Shown here one piece after another: positions 31,428-64,000 of a DNA stretch of 64,000 nucleotides. The DNA lies in assembly GCA_029262535.1 (NCBI GenBank), contig JAJCZF010000074.1, positions 8,395 to 72,394 on the forward strand. Reading direction: 5' to 3'. A model generated the notes under the pieces. The model saw nothing but the letters and a program-made list of their open reading frames with translations. It ran no database searches and was not told the DNA's origin. Position 1 is the first letter of the stretch. Each line of letters begins with the position of its first letter. A program made the translations under genes and the position numbers. Source of the DNA: Deltaproteobacteria bacterium (lineage in GTDB: Bacteria > Desulfobacterota > GWC2-55-46 > JAJCZF01).

Positions 31428-31431
31428 GTCC

Positions 31432-34825: not shown

Positions 34826-34833
34826 ATCAGAGG

Positions 34834-35268: not shown

Positions 35269-35367
35269 ACCTATTGATTTTGTGCTATTATTGTGTGAAA
35301 CTATATTTTGCGAAATACCGTATGGACTATAGTTTTATGGAAATTTTAACCGTTGGAGATATCTTCC

Positions 35368-35721: not shown

Positions 35722-35722
35722 T

Positions 35723-36322
35723 ATGGAGCTTACCGAAGCACAACTGGACGCCTTAAAAGAGATTGCCAACATAGGCATAAGCAGAGCGGCGACGCAGCTC
35801 TCTCTTCTTTTGAGCGATAAGATAGTGATGAATGTGCCCAATGCGCGTATCACTCTTTTGTCCGAGGCATCTAAAACGCTAAATACCACGGATGAAGATA
35901 TGGCCGTGGTCTATCAGGATCTCTCCGGCGAGCTTGCGGGACGCGCCCACCTGGTTCTTAATACCGAGGAAAGCAAGGTCCTCGTCCATGCCCTTCTCGG
36001 TAATGTGCCAACGCTTAGCGGGGCCGACCTTCTGGCCTACGAACACGAGGCGATGACCGAGATCGGCAACATCGTCATCTCTACCTGTATCTCCACGCTC
36101 GGCAACCTGCTTGACGGCGAGATCTTTCTTACAGTCCCCACTTATTCTGAAAAATCAGCTCTCGATATGTTCGCCGGCGGCGGTAAGGCCAAGGATGTGC
36201 TTATAATGGAGACCGTGCTTAAGGCCACCAATAAGAATGTCGAAGGTATGCTCGTCTTGGTATTAACGCTTGAATCGGCAACGGACCTTCTCGATATGCT
36301 CTCCGGGTTACTTGACAGCTAA
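35723..36322 (+). CDS. cheC: CheC/CheX-family CheY-P phosphatase
   Basis: Two ExxN sites in the typical context: LKEIANIGISRAATQLS and MTEIGNIVISTCISTLG. Confidence 0.7.
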   Translation: MELTEAQLDALKEIANIGISRAATQLSLLLSDKIVMNVPNARITLLSEASKTLNTTDEDMAVVYQDLSGELAGRAHLVLNTEESKVLVHALLGNVPTLSGADLLAYEHEAMTEIGNIVISTCISTLGNLLDGEIFLTVPTYSEKSALDMFAGGGKAKDVLIMETVLKATNKNVEGMLVLVLTLESATDLLDMLSGLLDS

Positions 36323-37494: not shown

Positions 37495-39033
37495 ATGGCT
37501 AAAGTTTCAGACCGAAACCTTTTGGTTATACCGCTTCTTTTTTTCTTTCTATCTGCCTTTTACGCGCCGCCCATGGCGCGCGCCGGTAGTTCGGACGACG
37601 CGGACTTTCAGCGCGGCGTGACCGACTATCGAAGCGAGAACTTCGAGGAGGCCGCCGCTTCGTTTGAAAAGGCCCTCCGTAATGACCCGGCCTCGACCGT
37701 AACCTCTTACTGGTTAGGGCTCTCCTATAAGCAGATGCTCGATTACAAAAAGGCTCTTAAAAACTTTTCAAATGCCGTGGAAGGGCAGCCCGCCGTAAAG
37801 GAGGCCGTCTTCGAGCTTGCAGAGATGAACTATCATTTGAAGAAGTACGACGAGGCCCTTGGAAATATCCTTCTGGCGGAGAAGATCAATATAAGACCGG
37901 CGGAAGTGGCCTTTATGAAGGGGCTTGTCCTGTCGGAGAAGGGCAAGGCGACTGAGGCTGTTGCTTCTTTTGAAAAGGCCAAGGCGCTAGACAGCTCGAT
38001 GGCCCAGTCAGCGGATTACCAAATGGGCGTGGTGCTCGTAAAGCTAGGCAGGCTCAAGGAGGCCGACCAGGTTTTTAGGGGTCTTATAGTCGTCGACCCG
38101 AACTCCGATCTTGCTATCTTCGCCAAGCAATATGTTGATATGCTTGAAAGCAAGGCGATACGCGACAGGCCGTTAAAGCTAACGCTCTCGACCGGTTATG
38201 AGGCCGATAGCAATGTCATATTAAAACCATCCGACCAGAGCGCCGCCGGCGCCATTACCGGCGAGAGCGACGGGCGTTTTGTCGTTAACTTTACCGGTGA
38301 GTACGCGTTACCTGCAAAGGGCAAGTACAATGTCAAGGGGCAGTATTCATTATATCTAACAAATCATGGCACGCTCGATACCCACGATGTCGAGAGCCAT
38401 ACTTTTGCAATTATCCCTTCTCGCCAGGTGAAGAACGGTGTAGTGAATCTTCATCTCGGGTATAACCACACGCTCGTAAAACGCGAGCAGTATCTGCGCA
38501 CCATTACGCTGGCGCCGGGTTATACCTTCTCTCTAAAGCCGGGGCTGCTTGGTCAGTTAGGCGCCAGGTACCAGCATAAGGATTACAAAAAATCTCCGCT
38601 CATACCCGAAGAGGACCGCGACGCAAACGAGTATGCGTTAAACGGCGGTCTCATGTATCTCTTTATGGAGAATAAAGGGGTCTTAAGCTTTAGGTACGAA
38701 TATAATCGTGAAAATACCGATGGCGTAAACTGGAACTACGAGGGGCACAGGGCGACGGCCAGCCTTACGTTGCCGGTGCAAAAAATTCTGGACGAGAAGG
38801 CCCGTATTTCCGCCTCTACCGGTATATACAAACAGCGTTACGAAAAAAGATCGACCGTCTTTGGCATGAAGCGCGAGGACCTGAACTGGACTGCGTCTTT
38901 TTCAGCCTCTTACGATGTAAAGAAGAATGCCGAGTTACAGCTCCGCTACGCATATACGCGAGCCGATTCGAATGTAGCGGTATACGACTATAGAAAAAAT
39001 GTCACAGGCGCATATCTGATTTACAAGTATTAG
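37495..39033 (+). CDS. Outer-membrane protein: N-terminal TPR domain + C-terminal beta-barrel (Slam/DUF560-like, or PgaA/BcsC-like)
   Basis: Signal peptide ending PPMARA, ~180 aa of TPR-like helix pairs, then ~290 aa of alternating beta-strand pattern (LTLSTGYEADSNV...) ending in the aromatic terminal signal AYLIYKY. Confidence 0.65.
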   Translation: MAKVSDRNLLVIPLLFFFLSAFYAPPMARAGSSDDADFQRGVTDYRSENFEEAAASFEKALRNDPASTVTSYWLGLSYKQMLDYKKALKNFSNAVEGQPAVKEAVFELAEMNYHLKKYDEALGNILLAEKINIRPAEVAFMKGLVLSEKGKATEAVASFEKAKALDSSMAQSADYQMGVVLVKLGRLKEADQVFRGLIVVDPNSDLAIFAKQYVDMLESKAIRDRPLKLTLSTGYEADSNVILKPSDQSAAGAITGESDGRFVVNFTGEYALPAKGKYNVKGQYSLYLTNHGTLDTHDVESHTFAIIPSRQVKNGVVNLHLGYNHTLVKREQYLRTITLAPGYTFSLKPGLLGQLGARYQHKDYKKSPLIPEEDRDANEYALNGGLMYLFMENKGVLSFRYEYNRENTDGVNWNYEGHRATASLTLPVQKILDEKARISASTGIYKQRYEKRSTVFGMKREDLNWTASFSASYDVKKNAELQLRYAYTRADSNVAVYDYRKNVTGAYLIYKY

Positions 39034-39069
39034 CCGCACAGGCACACAGGTGTGCTTATATTTCGCGGA
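39034..39069 (+). repeat. Gene-end palindromic motif, copy 1 (ccGCACAGGCACACAGGTGTGCTTATATTTCGCGGA)
   Basis: It begins at the first base after the TAG of 37495..39033. The core is the near-palindromic GCACAC-AG-GTGTGC, followed by a T-rich tail and CGCGG. Confidence 0.7.
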
Positions 39070-39406
39070 GTAAATTTTAGGCGCTGATAGTTTCATTGTC
39101 CGCGCCCAAAGTATATAGAGCAATCTTAATTTAGAAGTATCAGCTTCGTCGAAAGACGAGCTTTGTAATAAAATAGTAATACCCCCCTTCTTAATAGCTA
39201 AATGGAGGGCGGGAGATATGAAAGGCGACAGGCGAAATGCCATTGTAATATGGCCGAGCCTTTCACGGACGCGCTTATTAAAGGTACTGCCTACCGGGGG
39301 GTAACGCGGTATCTTTCGTATTACTCCAGCGTCTGTTCTCACCCGTTTCTCTCCATTTGTCTACAAATAATATTTATAATCAAAATAACCTATATAGGGG
39401 TTTGCC

Positions 39407-54400: not shown

Positions 54401-57400
54401 GAGCCGTGGGGCATCTATAAGATAGAACTCGGCGGCGACTACGCAAATCCCAACGGGGCGACAGGCTTTGAGATATCGCTCGGCGGCAGCGGCTGGAAGA
54501 ATCTCAATAACTGGCAAAACCCGAATACTTCTACCTACTTTTCGGGTGATAACTGGTATGCCGATATAACCGGTAACTGGAATACGGATGGTACTCTCGA
54601 CGGCACGATAAACGGCCGCTTCCTGACGCCCTTTGCGCTGGGCACGATAAATAGCGAGGCATGGGGTAGCTACGACACGGTGAACGCCGGTTTCTGGGAG
54701 GGGCTGGTCCTCGGCGAGTTCTACGAGACGCCGCTGGCCTTCGCCGGGATCATGGATTTTGAGGATGTGGGGACCTGGGCCGACGGGCCGAACTGGTCTC
54801 TCTTCGGCGAGTATGCCAGCGCCTTTAAAGAGGTGGGAGATATTATAGCGCGCACAGGCGGACTTGACGAGCCGTGGGACTGCGCCGCAGGCCTATGCGG
54901 ACCGACCGCGGCCCCGGTAGACGTAACGATACTGGGCGAGGTGATCGACTGGGATAACGAAGTGATGCAGGTCTTGCCCAATAACGCTTCTTATGTTTGG
55001 AATACCGAACTCTACAGCTGGAACGAAGGGCCGCAGACGAGGACGACCTTTGACGGCGGCGCATTCCGCGGTTTTGCCGGAGGCGTTCTGATCGACGACG
55101 GAGTAAACTTCTTCCAGGAGGTTGATGGATATTCGGTCGCGCTCTATATAGATCCCGAAGGCAATGTCGGTTATCTTAAGGGCGACGTGGCGGGTAACTA
55201 CTACTTTGATATGTACGGAGATGAGAGGGACAATCTTGGCGCGATAATAGAGAGTTACTCATTCTCGCTCCTAAATGCCGATGGCACCTTACAGGCCTAT
55301 GAGATGAAGACTCCGGGCAACCACTCCATAACTAGCGCGGCCAGTTTCTACAGCGAGGTCGTAACGAGCGCCACGCTGGATACCATGTTGTGGGGCGGCT
55401 TCCCGGTTGGTGGAGGCAACTTCGACGCGACCGACTATAACCCCGGCGGCGACGGATGGACACGCTACATACCGGGCGAGAGCTGGGGTATCTTTGATAT
55501 CATACTTAACGGCTACCCCGGCGAATACGATAATATGAATAACGACACCACATGGATGACAATGCTTGGCGGTTCAGGCACATTCGGCTCCAATCCGGAC
55601 GGGGTCGGCGGTTATTTTGATAACGACGGCTATTGGACTGCCTGGGTCCTTGACGGCACCGCCGTAAACGGAAAGCTCACAGGTAGCATAAGCTCCGGTC
55701 GTTGGATGACTTCGACTCATTTAGGAAATATATGGGGCGACATACTCGGCTACTATGATGGTCCCGGGAATCCGACTCCCGCCAACTGGGCCGGAAAAGC
55801 ACTTGGCGTATTCGACGGCGACTCGCTGGCCTTTAGCGGCAGGATTACTACGGAGCAGCAGGCGTGGATAACCGGCCCATGGCAGAACGGCCCGCAGGCC
55901 GGAATATTCGGTAACGACTGGGGAGAGAACTTCACCTCTGTCGGCGACGTAGGGGCATTTGCGGGTTCGCTCACTCCGCTTTGGAACTGTACGGCAGGGC
56001 CGCTCGCTTGCGGCCCGCAGACGACTAATGTGACATATATGGGTGAGATAATAGATCTTGACGCGGACCTAATTCCTGTGCTGGATTCATTTCCAAATAG
56101 GGCTAATGTCTGGAACAACGATCTTTTGAGTCACAATCTCTATAATTCTACCTTTACAACATTTGATGGAGGGTCTTTCTACGGCTTTATCGGAGGCGTG
56201 CTTATGAAAGGCCTTACAGACTCTCACGATGCCGAGGGAATAGTTGCGAGCCTCTATTACGACCCCGAAGGCAATATAGGCTACTTTACAGGCGGCCTGA
56301 ACGGTAGTTACAACTACTATATCCCGTCGTCGTATATGCCGGGACCGATAAACTATCACTATAGCGTCCTTAACGCCGACGGCACATGGACGCCGACCGA
56401 AAAGGTCGCGGCCGGGGGCCATACCATAACGAGCGCCGCGCTCTTTACGAGCGAGGTCATAACCAATCCCTATATGACGGCCTCTCTCGAAGGCTCGTTC
56501 GGCGCGGGCGAGAACGGTTATATATATGGTAAGGAACATAACCAGGAGCCGTCCTACTACGCATGGACCCGTTATGTGCCGGAACAGCCCTGGGGTCTCT
56601 TCGACATCGTCTTTAACGGTTACATGTCGAGCGGACAGGGTTATCAGAATCCGCTTGCCGAGACTACATGGCAGACATGGATGGGCGGCGAAGGACGTTT
56701 CGGATATTTCTTTGACGATGGCGCCGCAGGTTTTGATTACTGGGGCCTCTGGAGCGCGGATACGGCCTCCAGCCCGTGGGGAGAGCTTAACGAGGAGAAC
56801 TACTTCGAGTCCGGCAGTCTATCGGGTCGTTACCTGACCTTTACTCATACCGGTTCTATATGGGGCGATATAGTCGGCTACTACGAAGACCCGCTCATCG
56901 GCGGCAACCCTGAGGACTGGGCCGCGAAGTCGGTCGGAGTATTTGAGGGCGAACAGCTCGCCTTTAGCGGAGAGATATCCTTCTCCACGGGATGGAACAC
57001 AGGGCCTTATTTTGATATATTCGCCGATGACGGCACCGCAAGCGCGCTTGCTACCTATGACGAGATATGGGGTATCTCCGGCAGTACACAGGCCCCGTGG
57101 TCCTGTAGCGCCGGTTGTGTCCCGCAAAATACCGATGTGCTTCACATGTCCCAGTTGTTGGCATCGGGCGCTTATAACCAGGACGGTCCGCTCATATGGA
57201 ACTCGAACATTACCAGTTATGAGCGTTACGGTTATACATACCAGACATACGACGGCGGCTCCTTTGACGGCTTTATCGGAGGACTTCTCTTAAACGGTAA
57301 TGTGGACGCGCGTGTGGCCAATGTCTACATGGACCCTGCGGGCAACGCCGGTTATATATGGGCGGTGCTTGACGGGCGTTACGGTCTTGACTTGACCGAT

Positions 57401-60382
57401 ATTGGTATTAATACGCCTTACCGCCTCATAGAGGCGGACGGCCTTTGGCAGCCGACGCAGATGGCGACTTTTGCCGAGGTGGACTTCACACCGGCCAACT
57501 TCCAGAGTACCGGTATCGTCACCAACGCCGACATGAACGCCGGGGTATCTGGCATATTCGGCGCGGGTAACGGCATGATCGACGGCGTGGAGTACCGCAG
57601 CGGCACACCGCCGACGGCGGCGTGGACACGTTATCTCGACGGCCAGCAGTGGGGCGTCTACGACCAGATACTCGACGGCTATGACGTGACACTTGGCGGC
57701 GGTACATATTCAAATCCGCTACTCGATCCGACCTTCTCAATACAGATAGGCGGCGTTGGCGTTTTCGGCTCCATAGAGACCTCACCCTTCAACTATGTGG
57801 ACAACTGGGGCTGGTACTACGGCGAGGTAAATGACGGCCCGTGGACCGGCGGTACGCTGTTAGGAAACTACGCCGGCAGCTGGATGAGCCAGCGCTATAT
57901 CGGCGACATATGGGGCGATGTGCTTGGTTACTACGACACCTCCTTATCGCCGAACGACGGCAACTGGACGGCCAAGAATATCGGTATATTCACCGGCGAT
58001 CCGCTGGCTTTCTCCGGAGAGTCTTACGAGGCCGCCAGGTGGGAGGAGGGTCCGCTTAACGCGACCTATACCGATGTTGCGGGTTCATTTACCGACCTGG
58101 CGACGATATCTCCGAGATTACACGCGGGCAGCGTTGACGCGCCCTGGTCTTGTCCGGGCGGAGTCGGCACATGCGTACCGTCTGTTACCGATGTGCTCTA
58201 TCTCGGCGACGTGGATAATACGGTAATCCCGTATCTCGCACAGCCGCTCTTATGGAACCAGAATCTTAAGAGCTATAATATAGACCTGTTAAACGACACG
58301 ACCTTTGATGGCGGTTCATTCTCAGGCTTCATAGGCGGCCTATGGGCCGGTAATGATATCGACGCCACCGCCGTCAGCCTCTATATAGACCCCGACGGAA
58401 ATGTCGGTTGGTTTACCGGAGATCTCGCGGGCCAGTACTATATGGATATAATAGCCTTCGGCACGAGGCAGCTCCTTTATGGCGACGGACAGTGGACGGC
58501 GACCCAGATGAATAGCTTTGGCAATCACTCGATATCTAGCGCGGCGCTCTTCACCGCCGAGGTCGTTACCGACTCTACGATGGACGCCGACCTCTTCGGT
58601 TGGTTCGGCGGCGGCTCCGGTTCGATATACGCTACCGAGTATACCGATAACGCAACCTACAGCGCCGCGTGGACGCGTTATATAAACGGCGAGTCGTGGG
58701 GTATATACGATATGATACTCGACGGCTACCCGGCCGCCGGCTCTTTCACGAACCCGGTTCCGGATACGACACTGACGGCGGCGGTTGGCGGAGGCGGAGT
58801 ATTCGGAAGCCGCCCGGACGGTTTCGGCGGTTATAATCCCGAGACCGGTTTCTGGCTCGCATATATCAACGGTCCCTCGTGGCAGAATAATGTAGTCGAT
58901 ACGGATATGAGCGGCCTTTACGTTTCGGAGACGACTTACGGCACCATCGACGGACGCGTTATCGGCTACTACGATAACGCCGGTAATTGGGCGGCAAAGA
59001 GCCTTGGCGTATTCGAAGGAGCGCCGCTCGATGCATGGGCCAATATGAATGATTACCTCCAGTACTTCGATACCACCTTACAGCAGGAGTATCAGGTGCA
59101 GGCCAATCTCGGTCTGCATGGAGCGACCTTCGACTTCGTAGGGCAGTATATGGACTTTAGCGCGGGCATGCATAATAGCGTGACCTTGAATACCTTCATG
59201 ACGAGTTGGAATAATATAGACTCAAATTCTACGACATATACCGGAGACTCTTTTAAGGGTTTACTCGGCATGAGGGATACGATGAATACGGCTGAAAAAG
59301 GCGACGTAGATATAGAGATGATCGCGCTTGAGCTGACCAGCGCGGGCAATCTGGGTTTTGTCAAATTATCGGGTAGTGGCGAGAGTTACTACACGCCTGA
59401 GACGGTACTGGTACAGGGCGGAGTGACACATATACCGATAGAGCTTACCGCCTTGAACCTGTCGACCTTTGCGAGCAATGTCCTTACATTCAACTACAGT
59501 CCGACTATAAAGGTAGGCGCTTTCGGCGGCGGCGGAGCGATAACGCCTGTTGACGTTACATGGGTCGATGTGGAATACGATAACGGCGCTTTCTTCTCGG
59601 ACTACGGTCCCATCGGAGGTCTGATGGGCGGTAGCTATACGGGACCCGCGACTGGAAACTGGACGATAGATACGAAGTTAACCAATTATCTCGCATCGGA
59701 TTCGGCTATTCTCCATACCCGTACCGAAGGTACGGGAGGGTGGTCTCCGGACAGCGCCTTTACTGGCAAGACTCACGCCTACGGCGCCGAGACCGATGCG
59801 AGCGAGGCTATGACGTGGATAGCCGTAGGCGATACTATGGGCAATACCAATACCTTCAATCCCGGCGCTATTACGAAGTTCCAAGCCGTGACGACAGGCG
59901 CGTGGTTCAGGACTGATCAGTTCCTTGAGATGATCGGTGTTATAGCCGGTACTGCGAATACCGCGGCGCTCGACCAGTTAAACATACCGCATGCCGAGGT
60001 TGCTCTTATGACGATGTTCGGAGCCGGAAACGGAATCGACGTAACCCTGAATAATATGAAGTTCTACGGTTACTCGGCAGGACAAGCGCCGAAGATATTT
60101 GCTACAGAGGACGTCACCGGTAATATCACCGGGACGCCGACGACCGGCAATCCCTTTACCATTAACGCGGTAAGCGGCGGCGCGGCTTCCGCACAGTTTG
60201 AGATTCAGCAGTGGGACACCGGCGTCACGCAAAAGTGGCTCGGAACGATTGACGGCGGCACCGGCACCCTGTCGGGCGGCACCTATACCGGCCCTGTTAA
60301 CTTCACAGGCGCGGCCGCCGGAGATATTAGTACCGGAACGGGGACATTTTCAGGAACGGCAGCCGGCATAGCAACACCCTAG
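39407..60382 (+). CDS. Giant secreted repeat protein, 6,991 aa (FecR-like N-domain; repeat family unassigned)
   Basis: One ORF of 20,976 nt (3 x 6,992) with no interruption, and an AGGGG Shine-Dalgarno about 9 nt upstream of the ATG. All overlapping ORFs on other frames are short or antisense. Confidence 0.9.
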   Translation: MKYAKRPVSAIAVLFLILLSGVFSAAWADIAGTLTALEGRVDILRPGEDRATPAKLFDKVSVGDIIRTKSKSKAEITFVDDSVIRLAAGSRLEIQEYLFSGGERKSGVVKLFRGKARSIIKRQKGEKVGRFQVKTPTAVAGVRGTDFFVFHQLGLTGVMVVNGIVDVFNLDIPDVVVTLTAGTATTVEGDKPPTPPRGASEGEGGKHEDETTPLEDDGEGGDGEGEGSADEGGSGEGTDATRIAAIAPSGVVDPVDTGTPETPIEPVIVEPDLIPYEGETGDTTAPTVNITSGPTLITTTTTAGFTVTTNEDPTTFSYTLDGDVVGGLNLVGLAPGVHIFRAAGADEAGNIGYDSYTWFSGTAGSTFTGNSYGTGSTFTGTALAGDVYMGTSTDGSWMMDIAGDWVGPSGATWNIDAGGDGFDDTGLIWEGYWVNQMEGTYGSPVSGVAPMSGPAGLLYITEDYIASGAGTATGSVDTGAGTFALGVMGFDTYAEIPLLFDAGIDGTFLHSSAGNIEGDPASPVVGLMGGVDPLWTGTPGVLFIGQYENPGASRYFSALLEGGTSDGGALLGYIGGVSPDAENIRVLAGLLYVKDDGEGGNTAGYALSDNIAGIFYPELGMWETTGTFSTVDTGPTTATPGELFDGSVSIDQNSGNNPVVGDITGTLALESFSIEDQDSGILVGAGEGLFTATPSASWSARTGGTATDGPDSSYYITEITGTSWAGDNMGGTFAGTALSADSITDFSGDIQGVYEVTGSGNWQAVMLGTTESSPILFGGDVDGEFLEAQSPLVGSGTLTGFMGSDLPFNPGGTTSLLMMGDYTNPCAARIVAGDLSGTTADGGTYLGLMLGLAPGAADTTFDAIAAGLYINPDGVGGYTVGTFLNGSPIDGSFFSELGMWSATMPLGTFATDEGVTTTVPGDLYDGSPELFYNAVDGRVGGDINGHLELDSLMVDGMAGPVLIGAGGGFFDTTPGPGAWAATAGGSIDAGNPCAPVGLWVSNISGSSWAGDEFAATISGHSIDQINHTTFTGDIFGIYEITGSGNWQAATTGRAISTPLAFVNEVGAEIYSTTLLHEGAYTYSDGGKYEYSFREDGSFGFGNRRLNDASYVKDEYQAGGTYRHITSPPYNSTTSTWDPALFDTTTLAVAPAPLDAGTVTFAFDNVTPVGSSSGLLNGYMGGVDSLWVGTDIAVDFVGEYENTGSSIFYDPNIISHDYITGEGSTYAGGTYRGIFAGIDLATSLDGNFLGIYIAPSTEVGFLHGSLSGAANPAIGMADMTGLLNRTPVAPSPSPISLDFATNFIEGNDIWTTGFAGTFDGGGAIAIPMWEGWGNSISLVDFTAQRDIGWGIYGLELFGGYDTPTPTWTAITGGEAEFGLLKHNVRRSATYDYTDGSSYSYLFDSHNEYRSRDTGESTFTYPGGGDTITTSYYSNGTTKVVDTLAGTTTYGAWSPAAFEQFDLETIPVVAGETSSLTTSDEIDAHDRNYGFWLASVSDGTLTEGRLDGTLSGGHYMTYSSLGTLDGTLLGTINPTLGTFDSAIVGTRADTIPLTHMTEFGDAIYKTRRQIETETRYTNGEYYTSEHDLSNIEGAYSYHNAAGTSSSMTYNNGGDTFGYDSATGLRSYGFWDPTSFDLSTLATLPVPPAGHSILAEGYEPWDLGWYIGWQWGYMGGTDTLWSGVDIPGKIMGEFGDSITPYPGQNMNGVFYHETLSSTNELVRSGDPAENMTFDGGAYVGDLGGIRIGSSLEGAFIGLYVDPAGNAGVLTGDFLGTQFTDISLFEMDGLFNRQQIEAGASTNTPASALNGSLIDDWSFAYGIQGDFAGSGSLSSGASGSGWGNIYTFNDRVGDDALDWGTISFMDFGHASSPGPDWDAVFAGSGRFGIYNAYTTYEGRLNYTGGGEYSYSYRHDGSEAVVHLIRADGTTRDVTYNPDGTLGVVDTLLGNSSGFWTPGDDLSFLALPLELPGGETAYPDPTDGPSASDTGTANEGYYLLSVADGTLVGERMAGTSTGRYISERTLGTIDGDLLGTYDHDVDTFEVFNYGRWQKTGNLSHVADLRSETNTMAHEHVGYFDDTSSVSGSYEYTYHEDNSFGMAKLTRADGTYTQVTYSPNGRLDVVDTGGAGNTSNSWWDRGTMDLSTLATPPTVAGMTFVNLNTIDDYLIYQTSGSSLDGLMGEIPSLWTGPGVGMPITALGQYSGNYNGVFYQDFVASNDYTQGNNVVATYDGGAYVGLLGGADVSSRGVLDGLFYAIYMDPAGDSGILSSTDLAGTSYRDAAAFELDGTVTREQFATSAEVGLTPADMGFAVMYGSMTGTLTAEFDGGASLNVTPGFSASETLSIVNNATLTGQEWGIYGISLFGTMGTQTTTWSGIAMGQGDFGRVQSGAVMVDDPGYWYADVTSGTFASEAMSAELLGMFITDNKAGIIEGRMRGSYNDGLDTFQLASLGKWEALAPTFWGDITGGQFYDLNGGLVTPTALTSLTGRYAGGFVTPHFALSEGILAGDAVTIGKKLFTADVTGASDIGAVMAGHMVGVDDALTASIATIYIAPDGGGGQTGGLYQSRSINGEFQPTQIWAAGASFSETDKGPVDVAAANLATSIWTTSYIEPGIGTVTGGSLEGDFLGSGSILGDVRISTNSIYNNATHVTAPWGTFEMAIDSKGFLNPLVSSTWNGQARGWNAFGAYWDPAANAGAGGFTDDFGFWSVDMVNGNWNADGTLTAETASLFMTPYKLGIVTGDLFGVHETGVAGELGGLGVGTWESDWLAFSAILQNGATAWADGPVNGIFGDNGAGGFADIDNLWVFAGSAIAPWDCPATSCAPQSTTVNYLGMLGYDLAVISPGTYIWDSELEINDYAEPGRTTTYDGGSFLGFTGGLLSDGTVDGRVASIYIDPEGNVGYLTGTIDGVYDPATLYAPGGGDYFMMDASGPWNPTQMVSAGALGLGPANFYNNVRTSAGLTATLSGEFTGPSGSIDGAAYSPGVGEIAAWTRYIDGEPWGIFDVALDGYPGAVNPCGETTWTGFMGGEGVFGSRPDGGGGFLDNNGYYLTYASPGSWDAAKVTATLDGDFMTAETFGRISGDLIGYYDASGNWAGKALGVFDGATYGFVTGLNNSFYHFYDGDDTIWDRDSISGYFGSIASPFTIPGTPVSFMAMGKVSGIWSQTWWDNFSGTGSAWDGFIGGNRSFDNKTISGGVASFYIANDGSAGILDATLDGTIYPGSIFKVDGTDLKATEKTASGYIPANFNTYLATSAVNGEITGEFAGGTGSISTVGFLQDIAFNASGTRTQWFVNPGTAKDEPWGIYKLELGGYYTNPAAATTFDMTLGGNNWRAATDYWIMDIAGNWNADQTVDGTINGRYLNLTSLGSINSGMWGSYDTDTGGVWEGVALGTFEETPLAFSGEITFATDWDTGPWWGLYGNDGLGAFDAVDDFYGVAGSLENPWDCTAGCVPQTIDVVYMGQPCSVNNQPLIWNNDLYAFDVKWNEGAFSGFIGGALLDGAATGGVRLIYLDPDGNVGYIEGTLLGDYYGESSMIPFSADGQWVATEVSDSLGYDGVDPVYAEYLHGDLGRDPYFKTTLSGGFGAGGASGFINGVDFNGDFATYGYRGWTRYIDGEDWGIFDVIIDGYQGGGYSNPNPDSTFSGLVGGSGNFGSHFVEGPSYVKNPGYWLADVNGTVTNRNLDGTAVGTFMTREAIGPIWGDLYGYHEGAAWGGKLMGVFEGDPVAYSGELLTGGTFFNTNLSPPTESDSITGLMGSLNAINPGGSTDIDLLGEYLNPNGLRLFGADFEGTASDGTAFLGIYAGLDRQGTLDGVLGGIYIRPDGVGGHIAGTLLADDLAGEFLPDLGMWRASSANFIATDLGATAELPGDLFSGGTAFDDSEVNGLVGGDIFGNMLLIAQSVVDIDSGLLIGITGGLFGTNPAPGWTAHGGGTVNNGGLDPDDLWLAQITGSAWAAGNMDGTYSGFAMNPNEMTNFSGDLRGQYEVTGSGNWQAISIGTFGAATPLNFFAGLTPRFWMTGDFNWVEQGFLNGDTYDYSYESGTNQGFGRYAPLGVNANRVDTTFFADGTTESFDRVTGLYSSGTWNEAGGEAAMAAWYGTPDSSVPSPSAFGVEAMGGWFDIYMGSTTSLWPVTTPTPTAVPVTVLAKHIGSDWQSGEPRLIYEGARYLRNDPTWGATFNDYDGGAFRFGLVGMIEADDTIDPDIVGLYIDPAGNAGLLNGVVTGTAYTDIGMAEMAGQITPRQMAMAAEVGVLPASLDSSIYRSGISNPVSMLSGTLPGGGALDSTIYEIGSSTIVDYSGPTVVQQWGTLNYVFEAGGFANPGAATTWSATMGGYDPFGPDATGLADELGYWLADTVGGTIGDRTLRADFSGNFITPTKLGTIDGSLYGLYDTAVGEWGGRGLATYESDPLLYAGEITPILMTTSAGRRDIYNYSDGSIHIIEIMDDNTYARVVEQGTGYHRVTSYFSNGKVVELDRLTGAVTETTWNPAVDVLSTILTPPTGYTGSTLTPGALTTAAGKLDMLMGGIDSLWSGTPNIPVTMMGEYDYNSGAPYIFRDWFVDSPAFPEIGFTTYDGGDYAGAIAGGIALDESMEAHFAALYLDSSGNAGLIYDPVSGNADSSIDIFNMAGGLNPYQMATAAEVGADPNVDLYWTQSGGLGDRLAGWFPDGDTTADMSNEYYRFRTLSLTNSVTGTVPAQPWGIFTGQFKYGAATFANPGVFNTWYGGLAGMDPIGAYWTGSAFADDPGIYAADIINGNWADGSFDGEIDGWFMTPNKMGPLAGNIYGLYDELDGVWGAYTIGTWEGAPYGFVSNFNNSFYHFDNTPVILAPTATTMLDGYLGSFDSPFATPGIGVNFSVMGQGVDAGSQTWFGQFSGTGSAWDGWTGGHLSNTDDTINGIVNALYIDDVGNAGILGANFFGDLLPNEVFVASGTNLTATQKATGGYTAGLFNIYLQRGRPEGGIGGGFPGQPGYIGSPGIQGLVSVESETRWFDNGTIEPWGIYKIELGGDYANPNGATGFEISLGGSGWKNLNNWQNPNTSTYFSGDNWYADITGNWNTDGTLDGTINGRFLTPFALGTINSEAWGSYDTVNAGFWEGLVLGEFYETPLAFAGIMDFEDVGTWADGPNWSLFGEYASAFKEVGDIIARTGGLDEPWDCAAGLCGPTAAPVDVTILGEVIDWDNEVMQVLPNNASYVWNTELYSWNEGPQTRTTFDGGAFRGFAGGVLIDDGVNFFQEVDGYSVALYIDPEGNVGYLKGDVAGNYYFDMYGDERDNLGAIIESYSFSLLNADGTLQAYEMKTPGNHSITSAASFYSEVVTSATLDTMLWGGFPVGGGNFDATDYNPGGDGWTRYIPGESWGIFDIILNGYPGEYDNMNNDTTWMTMLGGSGTFGSNPDGVGGYFDNDGYWTAWVLDGTAVNGKLTGSISSGRWMTSTHLGNIWGDILGYYDGPGNPTPANWAGKALGVFDGDSLAFSGRITTEQQAWITGPWQNGPQAGIFGNDWGENFTSVGDVGAFAGSLTPLWNCTAGPLACGPQTTNVTYMGEIIDLDADLIPVLDSFPNRANVWNNDLLSHNLYNSTFTTFDGGSFYGFIGGVLMKGLTDSHDAEGIVASLYYDPEGNIGYFTGGLNGSYNYYIPSSYMPGPINYHYSVLNADGTWTPTEKVAAGGHTITSAALFTSEVITNPYMTASLEGSFGAGENGYIYGKEHNQEPSYYAWTRYVPEQPWGLFDIVFNGYMSSGQGYQNPLAETTWQTWMGGEGRFGYFFDDGAAGFDYWGLWSADTASSPWGELNEENYFESGSLSGRYLTFTHTGSIWGDIVGYYEDPLIGGNPEDWAAKSVGVFEGEQLAFSGEISFSTGWNTGPYFDIFADDGTASALATYDEIWGISGSTQAPWSCSAGCVPQNTDVLHMSQLLASGAYNQDGPLIWNSNITSYERYGYTYQTYDGGSFDGFIGGLLLNGNVDARVANVYMDPAGNAGYIWAVLDGRYGLDLTDIGINTPYRLIEADGLWQPTQMATFAEVDFTPANFQSTGIVTNADMNAGVSGIFGAGNGMIDGVEYRSGTPPTAAWTRYLDGQQWGVYDQILDGYDVTLGGGTYSNPLLDPTFSIQIGGVGVFGSIETSPFNYVDNWGWYYGEVNDGPWTGGTLLGNYAGSWMSQRYIGDIWGDVLGYYDTSLSPNDGNWTAKNIGIFTGDPLAFSGESYEAARWEEGPLNATYTDVAGSFTDLATISPRLHAGSVDAPWSCPGGVGTCVPSVTDVLYLGDVDNTVIPYLAQPLLWNQNLKSYNIDLLNDTTFDGGSFSGFIGGLWAGNDIDATAVSLYIDPDGNVGWFTGDLAGQYYMDIIAFGTRQLLYGDGQWTATQMNSFGNHSISSAALFTAEVVTDSTMDADLFGWFGGGSGSIYATEYTDNATYSAAWTRYINGESWGIYDMILDGYPAAGSFTNPVPDTTLTAAVGGGGVFGSRPDGFGGYNPETGFWLAYINGPSWQNNVVDTDMSGLYVSETTYGTIDGRVIGYYDNAGNWAAKSLGVFEGAPLDAWANMNDYLQYFDTTLQQEYQVQANLGLHGATFDFVGQYMDFSAGMHNSVTLNTFMTSWNNIDSNSTTYTGDSFKGLLGMRDTMNTAEKGDVDIEMIALELTSAGNLGFVKLSGSGESYYTPETVLVQGGVTHIPIELTALNLSTFASNVLTFNYSPTIKVGAFGGGGAITPVDVTWVDVEYDNGAFFSDYGPIGGLMGGSYTGPATGNWTIDTKLTNYLASDSAILHTRTEGTGGWSPDSAFTGKTHAYGAETDASEAMTWIAVGDTMGNTNTFNPGAITKFQAVTTGAWFRTDQFLEMIGVIAGTANTAALDQLNIPHAEVALMTMFGAGNGIDVTLNNMKFYGYSAGQAPKIFATEDVTGNITGTPTTGNPFTINAVSGGAASAQFEIQQWDTGVTQKWLGTIDGGTGTLSGGTYTGPVNFTGAAAGDISTGTGTFSGTAAGIATP
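39503..39994 (+). other. FecR-like domain (aa ~33-196)
   Basis: The pattern G.V.I.R.G......A..GD.I..GD.I.T...S.A.I.F.D.S.I.L...S.L.I, followed by VKTPTAVAGVRGTDFFV, is typical of the FecR periplasmic sensor fold. Confidence 0.6.
40001..40126 (+). other. Acidic Gly/Glu/Asp low-complexity linker (aa 199-240)
   Basis: SEGEGGKHEDETTPLEDDGEGGDGEGEGSADEGGSGEGTD, read directly. Confidence 0.8.
40250..40483 (+). other. Ig-like (bacterial Ig / HYR-like) domain (aa ~282-359)
   Basis: DTTAPTVNITSGP...TAGFTVT...FSYTLDG...LAPGVHIFRAAGADEAGN is the common surface-protein Ig-like pattern. Confidence 0.5.
40484..59039 (+). repeat. About 17-18 long (280-500 aa) degenerate protein repeats in at least four subtypes
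   Basis: In-frame (L/I/F)Y(I/V/L/M)xPxG-type anchors start at 41177, 42008, 43154, 44669, 46166, 47045, 48074, 48998, 49928, 50855, 52025, 53204, 54116, 55142, 56252, 57323 and 58379, with a degenerate one at 59327. Confidence 0.8.
59040..60379 (+). other. Distinct C-terminal region (~445 aa) ending in a Gly/Thr-rich tail
   Basis: The WTRY/WGIFD/YxDPxGN motifs stop after ~59.0 kb. The sequence becomes richer in N/Q/M/F/K and ends ..GTGTLSGGTYTGPVNFTGAAAGDISTGTGTFSGTAAGIATP. Confidence 0.5.
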
Positions 60383-60445
60383 CCACACACCACACAGGTG
60401 TGCTTCTATTTTCGCGCCACACAGGTGTGGTTTTACTTTCGCGGA
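60383..60445 (+). repeat. Gene-end palindromic motif, two tandem copies directly after the giant-gene stop
   Basis: ccacacaCCACACAGGTGTGCTTCTATTTTCGCG followed by CCACACAGGTGTGGTTTTACTTTCGCGGA. It starts at the first base after the TAG. Confidence 0.7.
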
Positions 60446-60502
60446 GAGAGTTCTTAGAGGACTGCTTGTGTCTTGCCCGCGTCTTTAATATGTAGATATG
60501 TA

Positions 60503-60543
60503 GAAAGGGACCGCCGGTATATTCGGCGGTCCCTTTCTTTTTG
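60503..60543. terminator. Strong bidirectional intrinsic terminator
   Basis: A perfect 14-bp stem gaaagggaccgccg / cggcggtccctttc with a 7-nt loop. It has a T-run on the plus side and the complementary A-rich flank for the minus side, and it sits between the convergent giant gene and the adaptor gene. Confidence 0.8.
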
Positions 60544-60562
60544 TATTATATATTGGGTGGGC

Positions 60563-61756
60563 CTATCTGAACTTTACTTCCGTTCCGTCTTCGATTGAAT
60601 CGTCCGGGTGGTTTATTATTGTGTCGCCTTCTGTTACGCCGTCCAGTATCTCCGCCGTCAGGCCGCTTCTATGGCCGATCTTTACCGGAGTAAGACGCGC
60701 GGTCTTACCTGCGACCTTAAAGAGCGCCCAGCCTTGACCTCCGTTTCTAAATAGAGCTCCGGCAGGCACGGTAAGTATCTCGTCACCCTCCCATATGATA
60801 AAGGCCGCCTCTACACGGTAGCCGTCTCCGAGTCTCGCCCATTTTTCTCGCGGGGAGCTTATATCGGTTATGACAAGGACCCTTTGTTCCTCTACTCCAA
60901 GGGCCGATACCTTTGTAAAACCGGTGGGCTCGATCACTCGCACACGGCCCTCAAGTTTGCCCTCGCCACCCCAGCGAGTGAATAGGACCTTTGCTCCCGG
61001 CCTTATCTTTACCGCATCCGCGCTTAGCACTTCTACCTCTACCTCAAGCCCGGTGGGATCGCCGATCTCGATGAGCGGATCGCCTTCCGTGACAACACCT
61101 TCGCTCTCGCGCGCTAGTCGAAGCACGCGTCCGGCGACCGGGCTCTTTACGGTTATGGCATCGCTTTCGTTCTTGCCGTTATCTCCGGAATATTTTAGGG
61201 CCGTCTTTGCTGCTTCGACCTCGTGCCTGGCTACATCAACGGAAAACTCGGCGCTCTTAAGGCGGGCGCGTGTGGCCTCGGCCTCGCGCCTTGAAGCGTC
61301 GAGCGTATCTTCGGTGACGTGTCCGTCCTTAAATAATATTGTAGTCCTTTTAAAGGCGCTCGCCGCGTAGTCGTGATCGGCTGCCGCGCTGAGGGCGTTT
61401 TCTTTAGCGGCCTTCAGGGCCGATACCGCTGATGAGATCACGGCGCGGGCCTCTGCTTCGCTCCTTGCGTCAAGTGCGCGGGCGCGTAGCGGTTCAAGCA
61501 GCACGATGGCATCGCCCTTACTGACTATATCGCCGACATCCAGCCCGATCCTTTGCGCAAAACCCGCGACCGGGGCTGAAACGACGTAGCGGTCTATGAC
61601 GCGTGTTTTGCCCTTCTCATCGACCGTGACACTCATGTGGCCGCGTATGGCCGTGGCGGTCTCGACTGTTGACGGGCCGGGCCTCAGGCCATAGATTACC
61701 GCTCCCGCGACCACGGCGATAATGACGATTATGAATATCCTTCTTTTCCAGTGCAA
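60563..61756 (-). CDS. HlyD/MacA-family periplasmic adaptor (membrane-fusion) protein
   Basis: N-terminal TM (IFIIVIIAVVAGAVIYG), a biotinyl/lipoyl-like hairpin, coiled-coil segments and beta-barrel C-domains. TTG start with an AAGGAG Shine-Dalgarno. Confidence 0.8.
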   Translation of the reverse strand: MHWKRRIFIIVIIAVVAGAVIYGLRPGPSTVETATAIRGHMSVTVDEKGKTRVIDRYVVSAPVAGFAQRIGLDVGDIVSKGDAIVLLEPLRARALDARSEAEARAVISSAVSALKAAKENALSAAADHDYAASAFKRTTILFKDGHVTEDTLDASRREAEATRARLKSAEFSVDVARHEVEAAKTALKYSGDNGKNESDAITVKSPVAGRVLRLARESEGVVTEGDPLIEIGDPTGLEVEVEVLSADAVKIRPGAKVLFTRWGGEGKLEGRVRVIEPTGFTKVSALGVEEQRVLVITDISSPREKWARLGDGYRVEAAFIIWEGDEILTVPAGALFRNGGQGWALFKVAGKTARLTPVKIGHRSGLTAEILDGVTEGDTIINHPDDSIEDGTEVKFR

Positions 61757-62279
61757 GGCTTTCTACTCCTTATAGAATGGCAAAGTTAAGAGCAAACCTT
61801 TAGCGCGTACGATAAACTTGCGTCACCTAGAAACTCTATCCGCGAAATAGGAGCACACCTGTGTGCCTTTTCCAGTGCAAGATTTATTCCTTCTTAATTA
61901 CTGACGCGTTACTACAAAAGCTGACGCTTCTACGGACTCTATTCGCGAAATAGGAGCACACCTGTGTGCCTTTTCCAGTGCAAGGCTTATTACTCCTTAA
62001 TTGTTGACGCGTTACTATAACACTTGACGCTTCTATGGACTCTATCCGCGAAATAAGAGCACACCTGTGTGCCTTTTCCAGTGCAAGGCTTATTACTCCT
62101 TAATTGTTGACGCGTTACTATAAAACCTGACGCTGCTATGGACTCTATTCGCGAAATAAGAGCACACCTGTGTGCCTTTTCCAGTGCAAGGCTTATTACC
62201 TCTTAATTACTGACGCGTTACTACAAGAGCTGATGCTTCTACGGATTCTATCCGCGAAATAAGAGCACACCTGTGTGCC
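61744..62279 (-). repeat. Tandem array: one 124-bp unit plus four 103-bp units, each with the palindromic motif, a Shine-Dalgarno and TTGCACTGGAAAAG
   Basis: The unit anchor ttttccagtgcaa occurs at 61744, 61868, 61971, 62074 and 62177. The palindrome gcacacctgtgtgc occurs at 61853, 61956, 62059, 62162 and 62265. Confidence 0.9.
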
Positions 62280-62287
62280 CTGTGTGC

Positions 62288-64000
62288 TTACTCTTTGGTC
62301 TTTAGTACTTCTACGAGGTCCAGGTGGTCGAGCTTTTCTCTTACTATTATACCGGATATTACGGCGGCTATGAGTACGACCAGCGCTGAGAGCGCGTATG
62401 TATCGGACTCTATTACCAGCGGTATCCGGTAGAGTTCGGTCTGCATAGAGTCGATTATATATTTCGCAAGTCCGCGCCCTATGATAAAGCCCAGCGGTAT
62501 TGCGAGAAGGGTCAGTATCGCAAGCTCTCCGAGCAGGATATACGATACCTCGCCTCGTGTGTAACCGAGCACCCGGAGGCTTCCAAGTTCACGTTGGCGT
62601 TCGGCCAGAGCGATCCTCGCGCTATTATATACTACGCCGAAGGCGATAATGGTCGCAAGGGAAATTATAAAAAATATAAAGATATAGATTTGTTCCGCCA
62701 TTGCATTGTTAAAGTTCTGCAGGGCGTCTTCGCGCGCAAGGCTGCCGGCTACGCGAGGCATATCCTTGAGGCGTGAATATATATCGGCCCTGTAGGTTGG
62801 GTCGAAGGTAAGGCGTACGCCGCTTATGGCCGAGCCTTCACGCATGAACCTAGCGAGCGCGTCTATCTCCATATAGGCCGAGACACCGACGAACTGTTTT
62901 ACCAGGGCCGCGACCTGCGCCTCTTTTATTGGGCGTTCGCCTTCAAGCACTTCTATCGTAAGCCTGTCGCCAGGCCGGACACCGAGCAGCTTTCCGAGAT
63001 GTTCGGTTAGGACTATGCCTTCCGGCGGCAGTTCGATCTTCTTTAAGTCTTGGTCGAGCAAGGTGCTGAGCCTGTTTTCGTTGCTCGTACCCTCAAGCGT
63101 CGTCCGGTAGCTCTTGTGTCCGTTTACGAGCTTTACCGGCACGGAGCGGAAGGGCTCGGCGTGAAAAACGCCTTCGAGCGACTTAAGTTCATTTAGCGCG
63201 CTTCCTGAAGTTGGCTCGATAAAAGATACTATGAGGTCGTCGTGCCTTGAGATATTAAACTCTACGTCGATCATATAGTCTATCGCGTCGCCAAAACATG
63301 TGCCCATCACCATTATAGCGCAGCCGAAGGCTATGCCGACGACGGTCATGAGGCTCTTTACGGGCCTCCTCTCCAGATGGCGAAGAATCATTCGTCCGGG
63401 TTGGCTTATGAAGCTCTGGAGGCCTAAGCGCTCGATGAATGTGGCGCGGTAGCTTACCGGCGGCTCCGGTCTCATGGCTACGGCTGGGCTTAGTTTTACC
63501 GCCCTTCGCACAGCCAGGAGCGTGCCCGATATCGCGGCAAGAAGGCTGATAAGGCACGATATGATGACGACCGAGGGCCTTAAGACGTAATTAAGATAGG
63601 GGAATCGATAGAACTCCATATAGAGGTTCGATAGATTCTCACCGAGCCAGACCCCGGCGTATATTCCGATAGCGAGCCCTATCGCGCTAATGATGAGCAC
63701 GAGTTTGAAGTAGAGATAACCGACTTCGAGGTTGTCGTAACCAAAGGCTTTCAGGATGGCAATCTGTTCGCGTTCGGTCGATATCATACGGGTCATAACG
63801 ACATTTAAGAGAAAGGCCGCCACGCCGAGAAAGATGACCGGATATACGGTGGCCATCTTCTGTAGTCCTTTAAGTTCTTCGGTAAGGTAACGGTGAGAGA
63901 GCTGGTACTCGCGTCCGTAGCCCCCTCTGGAGCCGTAGGGTTCGAGGATGAGGTCGAGCCTTTCGAGCACCTCCTCTTCGGAGCGTTCGCCGGAGAGAGA
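62288..64000 (-). CDS. FtsX/MacB-type ABC transporter permease (double-FtsX large form), 5' end outside the window
   Basis: Two FtsX-like 4-TM modules with a periplasmic domain between them (REQIAILKAFGY and RQRELGSLRVLGY linkers). The reading frame stays open to nt 64000. Confidence 0.8.
   Translation of the reverse strand, partial: SLSGERSEEEVLERLDLILEPYGSRGGYGREYQLSHRYLTEELKGLQKMATVYPVIFLGVAAFLLNVVMTRMISTEREQIAILKAFGYDNLEVGYLYFKLVLIISAIGLAIGIYAGVWLGENLSNLYMEFYRFPYLNYVLRPSVVIISCLISLLAAISGTLLAVRRAVKLSPAVAMRPEPPVSYRATFIERLGLQSFISQPGRMILRHLERRPVKSLMTVVGIAFGCAIMVMGTCFGDAIDYMIDVEFNISRHDDLIVSFIEPTSGSALNELKSLEGVFHAEPFRSVPVKLVNGHKSYRTTLEGTSNENRLSTLLDQDLKKIELPPEGIVLTEHLGKLLGVRPGDRLTIEVLEGERPIKEAQVAALVKQFVGVSAYMEIDALARFMREGSAISGVRLTFDPTYRADIYSRLKDMPRVAGSLAREDALQNFNNAMAEQIYIFIFFIISLATIIAFGVVYNSARIALAERQRELGSLRVLGYTRGEVSYILLGELAILTLLAIPLGFIIGRGLAKYIIDSMQTELYRIPLVIESDTYALSALVVLIAAVISGIIVREKLDHLDLVEVLKTKE

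Follow-up and report, generated by a model that had tools for sequence, protein, structure and literature searches.

Results

A tandem array lies between the permease and adaptor genes of an ABC exporter operon

We analysed a window of 64,000 nucleotides (nt) from a Deltaproteobacteria bacterium (assembly GCA_029262535.1, contig JAJCZF010000074.1), focusing on a tandem repeat array located inside an operon that encodes an ATP-binding cassette (ABC) exporter. At this locus the minus strand carries the 3' part of an FtsX/MacB-type ABC permease gene (62288-64000; Pfam FtsX and MacB_PCD), which runs past the window edge, followed by the gene of a HlyD/YknX-type periplasmic adaptor of 397 residues (60563-61756), assigned by Pfam HlyD_3/HlyD_D23 and by the N-terminus and length of its homologues. 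At full length the permease has 790 residues (P0122; Logan contig L088), and an ABC ATPase gene lies just upstream. The last permease codons are AAA GAG TAA (K-E-stop, with the TAA at 62288-62290), and 531 nt separate this stop from the TTG start codon of the adaptor gene.

The initial annotation of the window, made from its letters alone, had placed in this space five head-to-tail units of 124 + 4 x 103 nt that re-copy the ribosome-binding site (RBS), the start and the first codons of the adaptor gene, and this anatomy was borne out. Tandem Repeats Finder reported an array at 61833-62279 with a period of 103, 4.3 copies, 91% matches, 0 indels and a score of 712, and a repeat search returned a 30-nt block (a Shine-Dalgarno sequence (SD), TTG and 14 nt; plus strand CTTTTCCAGTGCAAGGCTT..) five times, spaced 124/103/103/103 nt apart. 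In the five-unit alignment each unit consists of a 34-nt core (GCACACAGGTGTGC TCYTATTTCGCGRATAGAGT), a spacer of 40 nt (units A to D) or 61 nt (the gene-proximal unit E), and a 29-nt block with the sequence AAGGAG TAA TAAGCC TTGCACTGGAAAAG. Read on the minus strand, all five units end with an SD, 9 nt and TTGCACTGGAAAAG (TTG CAC TGG AAA AG), and the SDs were found where they had been claimed: AAGGAG at 62101, 61998 and 61771, AAGAGG at 62204 and GAAGGA at 61893. The same was true for the GCGTCA direct repeats and for the two TATAGT hexamers at 62014-62019, which has a TG two bases upstream, and at 62117-62122.

In the direction of transcription the array starts with a 9-nt sequence (GCACACAGG) that partly duplicates the first hairpin's 5' arm and abuts the permease stop (62279-62287; Tandem Repeats Finder period 9, 2.0 copies, 100%). 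Hairpin core A (GCACACAGGTGTGC + TCTTATTTCGCGGATAGAAT; 62245-62278, nhmmer E=1.2e-11) thus begins 9 nt past the permease stop, and is followed by the variable 40-nt spacer of unit A (62205-62244, as seen in the unit alignment) and by its block, AAGAGG TAA TAAGCC TTGCACTGGAAAAG (62176-62204), in which an SD, a relic stop, a 6-nt gap and a decoy start can be recognised. Unit B (62073-62175) has its core at 62142-62175, its spacer at 62102-62141, including the TATAGT at 62117-62122, and its block at 62073-62101; unit C (61970-62072) has its core at 62039-62072, its spacer at 61999-62038, including TGtTATAGT at 62014-62022, and its block at 61970-61998. Unit D (61867-61969; core 61936-61969, spacer 61896-61935) ends in a degenerate block (61867-61895, AAGAAGGAATAAATC TTG...), and unit E, of 124 nt (61743-61866; core 61833-61866, spacer 61772-61832), in the block that serves the adaptor gene (61743-61771), AAGGAG TAG AAAGCC TTGCACTGGAAAAG, after which AAGGAT follows. 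All of these features are on the minus strand.

The units are not identical, and they have not diverged evenly. No two of the four 103-nt units agree: compared in pairs they show 4-13 differences, A resembling D and B resembling C (B and C differ at 4 sites only). Unit E has only the core and the block in common with the others; any likeness of its spacer to the other spacers is at most marginal, with p ~0.005 for one unit and no significance for two. As the block of each unit adjoins the core of the next, the two form a contiguous conserved stretch of ~64 nt, which corresponds to an SD plus a short open reading frame (mini-ORF). Among units A to D, 2/45 columns are variable in the mini-ORF versus 15/58 elsewhere (Fisher p=0.003, for a partition picked post hoc).

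Four mini-ORFs start with copies of the adaptor start codon

The four mini-ORFs, each of 14 codons plus TAG, were found by translation of the minus strand at the coordinates claimed initially: 62145-62189, reading through hairpin core B, 62042-62086, 61939-61983, and 61836-61880, reading through hairpin core E. They translate as (M)HWKRHTGVLLFR(G/E) followed by the stop, so that each peptide equals the first five residues of the adaptor joined to the element read in one frame, and each frame stops 3 nt short of the end of the core. Only two substitutions affect the mini-ORFs among units A to D, a synonymous one (CTA/TTA) and a Gly/Glu change in the last codon, and all four decoys retain the TTG and an SD of at least 5 nt. 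The gaps measure 98 nt from the permease stop to the first TTG, 58 nt between consecutive mini-ORFs and 79 nt from the last one to the adaptor start. We also considered a second set of ORFs of 24-25 codons, running from a GTG in the palindrome to the relic TAA (MCSYFA(D/N)R...IKE; 61884-62270, minus strand); since the differences between its members are mostly non-synonymous, these are probably not coding.

The adaptor gene itself begins at 61756 with TTG CAC TGG AAA AGA (MHWKRRIFII...), as had been proposed, and because homologues of the same length begin with VRWQRRI, MQWRRRI and MQLKRNI, this TTG is the genuine start. The public adaptor protein (P0001, 383 residues) is called from a GTG at 61714, 14 codons downstream of the TTG, which is probably a miscall due to the end of its contig in the repeat.

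The repeated block matches the permease-adaptor junction of homologous operons

Besides those of the organism itself, the best homologues of the adaptor and the permease are 60-62% identical to them. The three closest homologous loci (57-60% identity) share the gene order ABC ATPase, FtsX permease, adaptor; in all three the distance from permease stop to adaptor start is exactly 6 nt, and none of them carries the array. Their junctions read AAGGAGTAA-TGGTCA-GTG, AGGGAGTAG-CATATA-GTG and AGGGAGTAG-CGTACG-ATG, with the codons AAA ACA AAG GAG TAA, AAG ACA AGG GAG TAG and AGG GAG TAG at the permease end, and the SD of the adaptor gene in these relatives is formed by the last two permease codons (K/R-E). 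Here the permease ends with VEVLKTKE-stop, orthologous to the VEVLKTRE-stop and AVLKTKE-stop of the relatives, and the element follows directly.

The layout of the relatives' junction is found again in the units of the array, as AAGGAGTAA-TAAGCC-TTG in units B and C, AAGGAGTAG-AAAGCC-TTG in unit E and AAG AGG TAA-TAAGCC-TTG in unit A. This shared 6-nt layout implies that the 531-nt spacer is a lineage-specific expansion and that the decoy SDs are relics of the last codons of the permease. The repeated 29-nt SD/start block is, judged from this sequence comparison, a copy of the ancestral 6-nt permease-adaptor junction. Moreover the AAGGAT that follows the block in the adaptor gene repeats the pentamer AAGGA with which the block starts, and an AAGGA direct repeat bounding the block is a typical signature of slipped-strand duplication. 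A 9-nt direct repeat (AAAGAGTAA / AAGAGGTAA) flanks the first unit and is accounted for by the permease 3' end together with its junction copy.

The core of the units is a hairpin element dispersed in the genome

A palindromic motif had been recognised in each unit from the start, and it is present in all of them; what had been missed is that the motif is dispersed and also lies behind two other stop codons. For the 14-nt palindrome the window yields 14 matches, versus 0.14 expected by chance, and the element to which it belongs is present in 9 copies at 4 loci within the 64 kb, all of them intergenic and co-oriented with the local genes. Outside the array one copy (39042-39075, plus strand) follows a TPR/beta-barrel gene, 8 nt past its stop (39031-39033), and precedes a giant gene by 365 nt, and two tandem copies (60390-60451, plus strand; starting at 60390 and 60417, with a 27-nt period and 89% identity) lie 7 nt past the stop of this 6991-residue gene. 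Counted from the stops at 62288, 39033 and 60382, the palindrome therefore begins after 9, 8 and 7 nt, respectively. The fourth locus is a diverged copy (CCACACAAGTGTGG TCTTATTTTTGCGAAG; 11014-11044, minus strand, nhmmer E=1.8e-5) with no stop codon before it, located in a divergent promoter region between a rhodanese gene (10543-10929, minus strand) and an O6-methylguanine methyltransferase gene (11134-11739, plus strand). A sigma-70-like sequence, TTGGAA-17-TATACT, is found just downstream of this copy.

Likeness among the dispersed loci, as seen by blast, is confined to the core of ~28-34 nt. The consensus structure obtained with RNAalifold has a hairpin of 6 pairs, closed by a CAGG loop, and a U-rich tract behind it, and one stem pair shows a compensatory G-C to C-G change in two copies, one of them the second copy of the tandem at 60390/60417. 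Local folds of the element range from -8 to -11 kcal/mol. A long-range CGCGG/CCGCG stem had been suspected; on the element copies RNAalifold supports the 6-pair hairpin alone. Since the element stands in three different frames behind three stops, it is neither a read-through extension nor coding, and a reading as a pyrrolysine- or selenocysteine-insertion-like sequence (PYLIS or SECIS) was dropped because the stops behind which it sits are TAG, TAG and TAA.

The space between stop and palindrome is exactly filled at all three of these loci by a 7-9-nt partial duplicate of the element's own 5' arm (62270-62287, 39034-39041 and 60383-60389), which either arose by recurrent slippage or belongs to the element itself and permits two alternative hairpins. 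The 5' edge of the palindrome forms one end of the duplications of 7-9, 27 and 103 nt alike. As the later copies are not preceded by the same sequence as the first, this edge is a true duplication end-point and not an arbitrary phase of the repeat.

The element pattern had 0 matches in the GTDB representative genomes and 3 in the JGI metagenomes, all in one unrelated coding sequence; in ~400 kb of the relatives' loci there was one match, in coding sequence and not a true copy, and 4.4 kb of additional flank held no copy. No transposase-like gene, of which the RAYT (TnpA_REP) genes associated with REP sequences would be an example, was found among the Pfam-scanned ORFs of the 64-kb window, and no GTAG adjoins the palindrome in the element alignment. 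Nor are there terminal inverted repeats at the unit ends, and the combination of such repeats with a target-site duplication that marks a miniature inverted-repeat transposable element is thus lacking.

An independent assembly breaks inside the array

For comparison we used the Logan k=31 contigs L001 and L088 (SRR15505517_376334), assembled from run SRR15505517. Both are 100% identical to the window, L001 over 56992-61870 and L088 up to its end at 62259; neither spans the array, and each breaks off within an outermost copy of the element. The start of L001 lies exactly 30 nt upstream of the G/A site by which unit E differs from unit D, which is the break expected of a de Bruijn graph in which one 30-mer has two continuations, and the reads must therefore contain at least two different such units. 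Since the four 103-nt units are all distinct, simple over-expansion of an identical repeat does not explain the array. From the repeats in the window, L088 would be expected at k=31 to reach ~62250; it stops 9 nt short of this, which suggests a polymorphism or a low-coverage break at 62258/62259 in the sample.

Searches for RNA structure, promoters and terminators

Three roles had been proposed for the array: leader-peptide or attenuation-type control, promoter multiplication, and recombination-driven variation in copy number. Concerning the first of these, the Rfam scan of 60300-62400 at E<=10 found nothing in the array and returned only chance matches to a terminator at 60502-60538. Folds of the whole array were not better than those of shuffled sequences on either strand (z = -0.22 and -1.29), single units folded worse than their shuffles (z = +1.4/+1.8), and the partition-function fold was dominated by non-specific pairing between the palindromes of different units, so that accessibility of the five initiation regions was uninformative. 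Each unit does place a short SD-led ORF upstream of a gene, as a leader peptide would be placed. No mutually exclusive alternative structure, of the kind that defines an attenuator, appeared in folds of the array or of single units, and with neither such structures nor conservation in the relatives the proposal of leader-peptide attenuation was not supported.

The proposal of promoter multiplication fared no better. No sigma-70-like promoter was called on the minus strand of the region, although the promoter type of the host lineage may differ, and TATAGT is present in 2/5 units only (B and C), in the least conserved part of the unit; A and D have TGTAGT and E lacks the hexamer. An RBS and a start are present in 5/5 units. 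The sole sigma-70-like match, TTGACG-17-TAGATT (9/12; 61669-61697, plus strand), lies within the adaptor gene in antisense orientation, directed toward the adaptor start and the array; with 1.1 such matches expected in the region it is at chance level and carries no weight. A sigma-54 promoter was considered by eye and rejected, the spacing of its GG-N10-GC being one off. The third role, copy-number change by recombination, is mechanistically plausible given the near-identical 64-nt blocks in the sequence.

A consensus terminator scan calls the element copies in units B and C, as well as 60386-60431 and 11030-11049. In these terminator-like copies the stem has just 5-6 pairs and the U-tract is interrupted (CUCUUAUUU or CUCCUAUUU). 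The terminator at 60502-60538 is canonical and bidirectional, with a symmetrical stem of 15-16 bp and T-runs on both sides, and lies between the convergent giant and adaptor genes; its strength makes it unlikely that the weak hairpin element ~100 nt upstream is the main terminator there.

Genomic setting

The window is chromosomal DNA of an uncultured bacterium. Its other genes, identified by Pfam, include mnmA, the genes of RNase III and citrate synthase, a Che-type cluster, and the genes of a GGDEF protein, the TPR/beta-barrel protein and the giant protein. The citrate synthase is at most 81% identical to those of metagenome-assembled genomes labelled Deltaproteobacteria, Thermodesulfobacteriota or Nitrospinota.

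The giant gene (39407-60382, plus strand) is a single ORF of 6991 codons, internally repetitive, with a G+C content of 0.55-0.59 versus ~0.50 in its flanks. Before it comes the TPR plus Slam/beta-barrel-like outer-membrane gene (37495-39033), and after it, on the opposite strand, come the genes of the ABC exporter; the product of the giant gene may be secreted or exposed at the surface and have an export neighbourhood of its own. Of the four loci with the hairpin element, three fall within this 23-kb stretch. Further upstream, the complete Che-type cluster (25175-36322, plus strand) encodes a response regulator-HD protein, two CheW, CheR-TPR, a NIT-domain methyl-accepting chemotaxis protein, CheA-CheW-REC, CheB and a CheC-like protein; a PAS-GGDEF gene comes after it, immediately upstream of the TPR and giant-protein genes, and a regulatory link of these genes to the expression of the surface protein is possible.

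Discussion

A self-compensating expansion of the junction

The explanation that we favour, with a probability of roughly 0.55 on the evidence of sequence, is that the array arose when the permease-adaptor junction in an ABC exporter operon of the ATPase-permease-adaptor (MacB/FtsX-type) kind underwent a lineage-specific and self-compensating expansion. Ancestrally 6 nt would have separated the two genes, and the last two permease codons (AAG GAG plus stop) would have contained the adaptor SD. A hairpin element resembling repetitive extragenic palindromic (REP) sequences, which this genome seems to place 7-9 nt behind stops, would then have come to occupy the junction, and a segment comprising the 34-nt core, the spacer and the 29-nt junction copy would have been amplified in tandem, by hairpin- or microhomology-mediated slippage and later by unequal crossing-over. 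Duplication end-points at the palindrome edge, together with the AAGGA direct repeat, favour the slippage route. Since the adaptor SD lay within permease codons, only arrangements that regenerate the junction would keep the pump working, and it is in this sense that the insertion would be self-compensating.

In its present form the operon mRNA would run through five weak hairpin and U-rich elements. The adaptor gene is fused to the last of the junction copies alone, which would provide it with a working SD and TTG, and the four others would necessarily open 14-codon ORFs that read through the next hairpin. Translation of these mini-ORFs would be expected to melt the hairpins and to leave stretches of ribosome-free RNA of no more than 58-98 nt, short enough to limit hairpin- or Rho-dependent polarity on the adaptor gene, and the tight stop-start coupling of the ancestral junction would have given way to independent initiation at the adaptor SD and TTG. 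From their sequence the mini-ORFs are probably translated, which would make the expansion tolerable, and we infer that they are tolerated and possibly mildly beneficial by-products rather than a dedicated sensor. Together the dispersed element and the ancestral junction copy offer an evolutionary explanation that needs no regulatory purpose; a dedicated regulatory role of the array is possible but unsupported.

Several observations weigh against this explanation. The near-invariant 64-nt stretch of SD and mini-ORF, set against a spacer that is variable and in unit E barely alignable, exceeds what would be expected of a purely neutral by-product; selection on the mini-ORFs could be responsible, or else gene conversion. 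With 4-12% divergence among its units the array is not of very recent origin but has persisted without collapse, and the nearest relative, at ~60% identity, is too far away to reveal an empty site or variation in copy number. Moreover the hairpin is weak in the folding models (-8 to -9 kcal/mol), which makes the benefit against polarity a conjecture.

Alternative explanations

The same uneven conservation is what would be expected if the array were a selected ribosome relay or rheostat, in which SD-led mini-ORFs carry or reload ribosomes across the hairpins, thereby suppressing termination and polarity or setting the adaptor:permease ratio, with the number of units as a dial turned by unequal crossing-over. 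The conserved block coincides exactly with the SD and mini-ORF, a usable SD has been kept by all four decoys despite substitutions nearby, every hairpin but the first falls inside a mini-ORF, and the identical 64-nt blocks would suffice as substrates for homologous recombination. The gaps of 58-79 nt are also within reported coupling distances, and short ORFs that 'deliver' ribosomes have been proposed (PMC12548453). Nevertheless the partition into mini-ORF and elsewhere was picked after seeing the data, conservation of the core is already due to the element's own constraint, so that the remaining 15-nt start block is weak evidence, and two substitutions in the ORFs, one synonymous and one not, are too few for a test of coding selection. 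The array is, moreover, in none of the relatives compared. We therefore regard a relay as possible but unlikely, and find it more doubtful still that the array is a selected stoichiometry dial, evolved apart from mycobacterial interspersed repetitive units (MIRUs), whose unit number sets the amount of adaptor per permease in a heritable and reversible manner. An operator is another matter, and one that we think improbable: the 6+2+6 inverted repeat GCACAC-AG-GTGTGC would be the site of a dimeric DNA-binding protein (or of an RNA-binding one), the five sites would form a roadblock or nucleoprotein complex on the adaptor gene, and the dispersed copies would define a small regulon near the giant-protein and exporter genes. 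In two copies both outer positions change symmetrically (G..C to C..G), so that dyad symmetry is kept, 3/4 loci are upstream of a co-oriented gene, with the copy at 11044 in a promoter region, three loci lie within 23 kb, and sites spaced 103 bp apart are separated by about 10 helical turns. These points are countered by the lack of a candidate regulator gene adjoining any copy among the Pfam-scanned ORFs of the window, by the position of the copies at 60390/60417 between convergent genes, and by the strict co-orientation and the asymmetric U-rich/TTTCGCGGA tail, which argue for a feature of RNA or of single strands.

To leader-peptide attenuation, in which translation of a mini-ORF, or stalling on it in response to an antibiotic or to amino-acid supply, toggles between a hairpin plus U-tract terminator and read-through, we would give a shade less credence than to an operator. 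In its favour, an SD-led short ORF overlaps a terminator-like hairpin and a U-rich tract in each unit, two of which are called by the scan, pairing of GGAAAAG with CUCUUAUUUC extends the local hairpin to -9.3 kcal/mol, and the efflux setting suits known drug-induced leaders. The fold z-scores are not significant, however, and no mutually exclusive structure was found; the peptide is simply the adaptor N-terminus joined to the element, which is in other frames behind other genes; and a device of this kind would sit within the operon, between two subunits of one pump, with no sensor codons and no counterpart in the relatives. An assembly artefact, with the wrong number or order of copies, or with strain variants of a one- or two-unit locus strung together, also has to be weighed, as the contig is metagenome-assembled, the k=31 assembly of SRR15505517 does not cross the region, units B and C are so similar, and the early end of L088 may reflect polymorphism. 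The units are nevertheless all distinct, in register and free of indels, and the break of L001 implies that at least two different units follow the same ...GGAAAAG plus core in the reads; the repeat therefore exists although its number is uncertain, and an artefact of this kind is very improbable. Least credible to us is a set of promoter or small-RNA modules, each made of a TATAGT -10 element, a transcript through the SD and TTG and a hairpin terminator, that would multiply the adaptor promoters or produce RNAs of ~65 nt. Tandem arrays of small RNAs do occur in other bacteria, TATAGT has an extended -10 TG in one of the two units that carry it, and the hairpin and U-tract are suitably spaced, but there is no -35 element and no minus-strand promoter call, the hexamer is altered or missing in the other units and belongs to their least conserved part, and neither an Rfam match nor a structural signal was obtained.

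If the junction expansion holds in its structural part alone, the locus would be a natural example of a tightly coupled junction that has absorbed the insertion of a repeat element. The insertion would have survived because a copy of the junction, including an SD hidden in the last codons of the upstream gene, was regenerated beside the downstream start. This would also be of use for annotation, as it accounts both for the calling of the adaptor start 14 codons downstream and for the breaks of short-read assemblies at this site. Should the mini-ORFs be functional as well, a MIRU-like solution, with translated ORFs inside intercistronic repeats, would have arisen outside the actinobacteria, and the locus would offer a simple system for studying long-distance translational coupling and the control of subunit ratios by copy number.

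Comparison with known systems

The element is best compared with the enterobacterial REP sequences and bacterial interspersed mosaic elements (BIMEs), found for example at malE-malF and in the his transport operon. Like them it is a short stem-loop palindrome (with a core of 34 nt, against 21-65 bp for REPs), extragenic, dispersed and co-transcribed, which stands singly or in clusters and can be intercistronic. Three of the copies lie 7-9 nt past a stop, inside the <16-nt range in which E. coli REPs reportedly lower translation of the upstream gene (Liang, Rudd & Deutscher 2015, via PMC12306157), and REPs and BIMEs have been tied to recombination and mRNA stability (PMC3184786). In contrast the element has no sequence relation to described REPs and no GTAG-type 5' tetranucleotide, and its stem is short and moderately GC-rich. 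Most importantly REP clusters do not contain copies of the downstream SD and start codon. From its sequence we would therefore call the element REP-like, and do not claim membership in the REP family proper. In 1990 Shyamala, Schneider and Ames reportedly described tandem duplications with join-points at REP or palindromic sequences, and the duplications of 9, 27 and 103 nt seen here likewise have a palindromic repeat at one end-point. The classical cases are, however, large (kb to 100s of kb), unstable and joined at distant REPs, whereas those described here are short, local and diverged.

Repeats that bring translation signals with them are also known, since REP2 of Neisseria and inverted repeats of Borrelia supply a promoter, RBS and ATG to downstream genes (PMC3184786). 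Those repeats are dispersed upstream of many genes and bear promoters, whereas in the array the RBS/start block is local, derives from one junction and is repeated in tandem, and no promoter was detected in it. With leader peptides and upstream ORFs, of the erm/cat type or of the kind proposed to deliver ribosomes, the units share an SD-led short ORF lying over an RNA hairpin that its translation would open. They differ in that four copies follow one another within an operon rather than in a 5' leader, with long gaps to the next start, and that no alternative pairing, known arrest motif or conservation in relatives was found.

Finally the mycobacterial MIRUs, a class of variable-number tandem repeats known for instance from senX3-regX3, are likewise tandem units of tens to ~100 bp that lie between the genes of an operon, are oriented with these genes and hold a short ORF per unit. 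The array has the same arrangement, with co-oriented units of 103 and 124 nt between cistrons of an operon whose ATPase-permease-adaptor order is kept in the relatives. MIRU units of 40-100 bp are thought to insert with little damage, their ORF staying translationally coupled downstream (PMC12548453; PMC3184786), and their copy number varies between strains. The differences concern the way the ORFs are linked to their neighbours, as those of MIRUs overlap the adjacent stop and start (-4 coupling) whereas the mini-ORFs have their own SDs and gaps of 58-98 nt, and the origin of the unit, in that only the 34-nt core and not the 103-nt unit is dispersed and the ORF start copies that of the host gene itself rather than being part of a mobile unit; the array also belongs to another phylum and has no sequence similarity to MIRUs. 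Taken as a whole, and by analogy, the array is nonetheless most like the mycobacterial MIRUs, as an intercistronic repeat array with embedded short ORFs.

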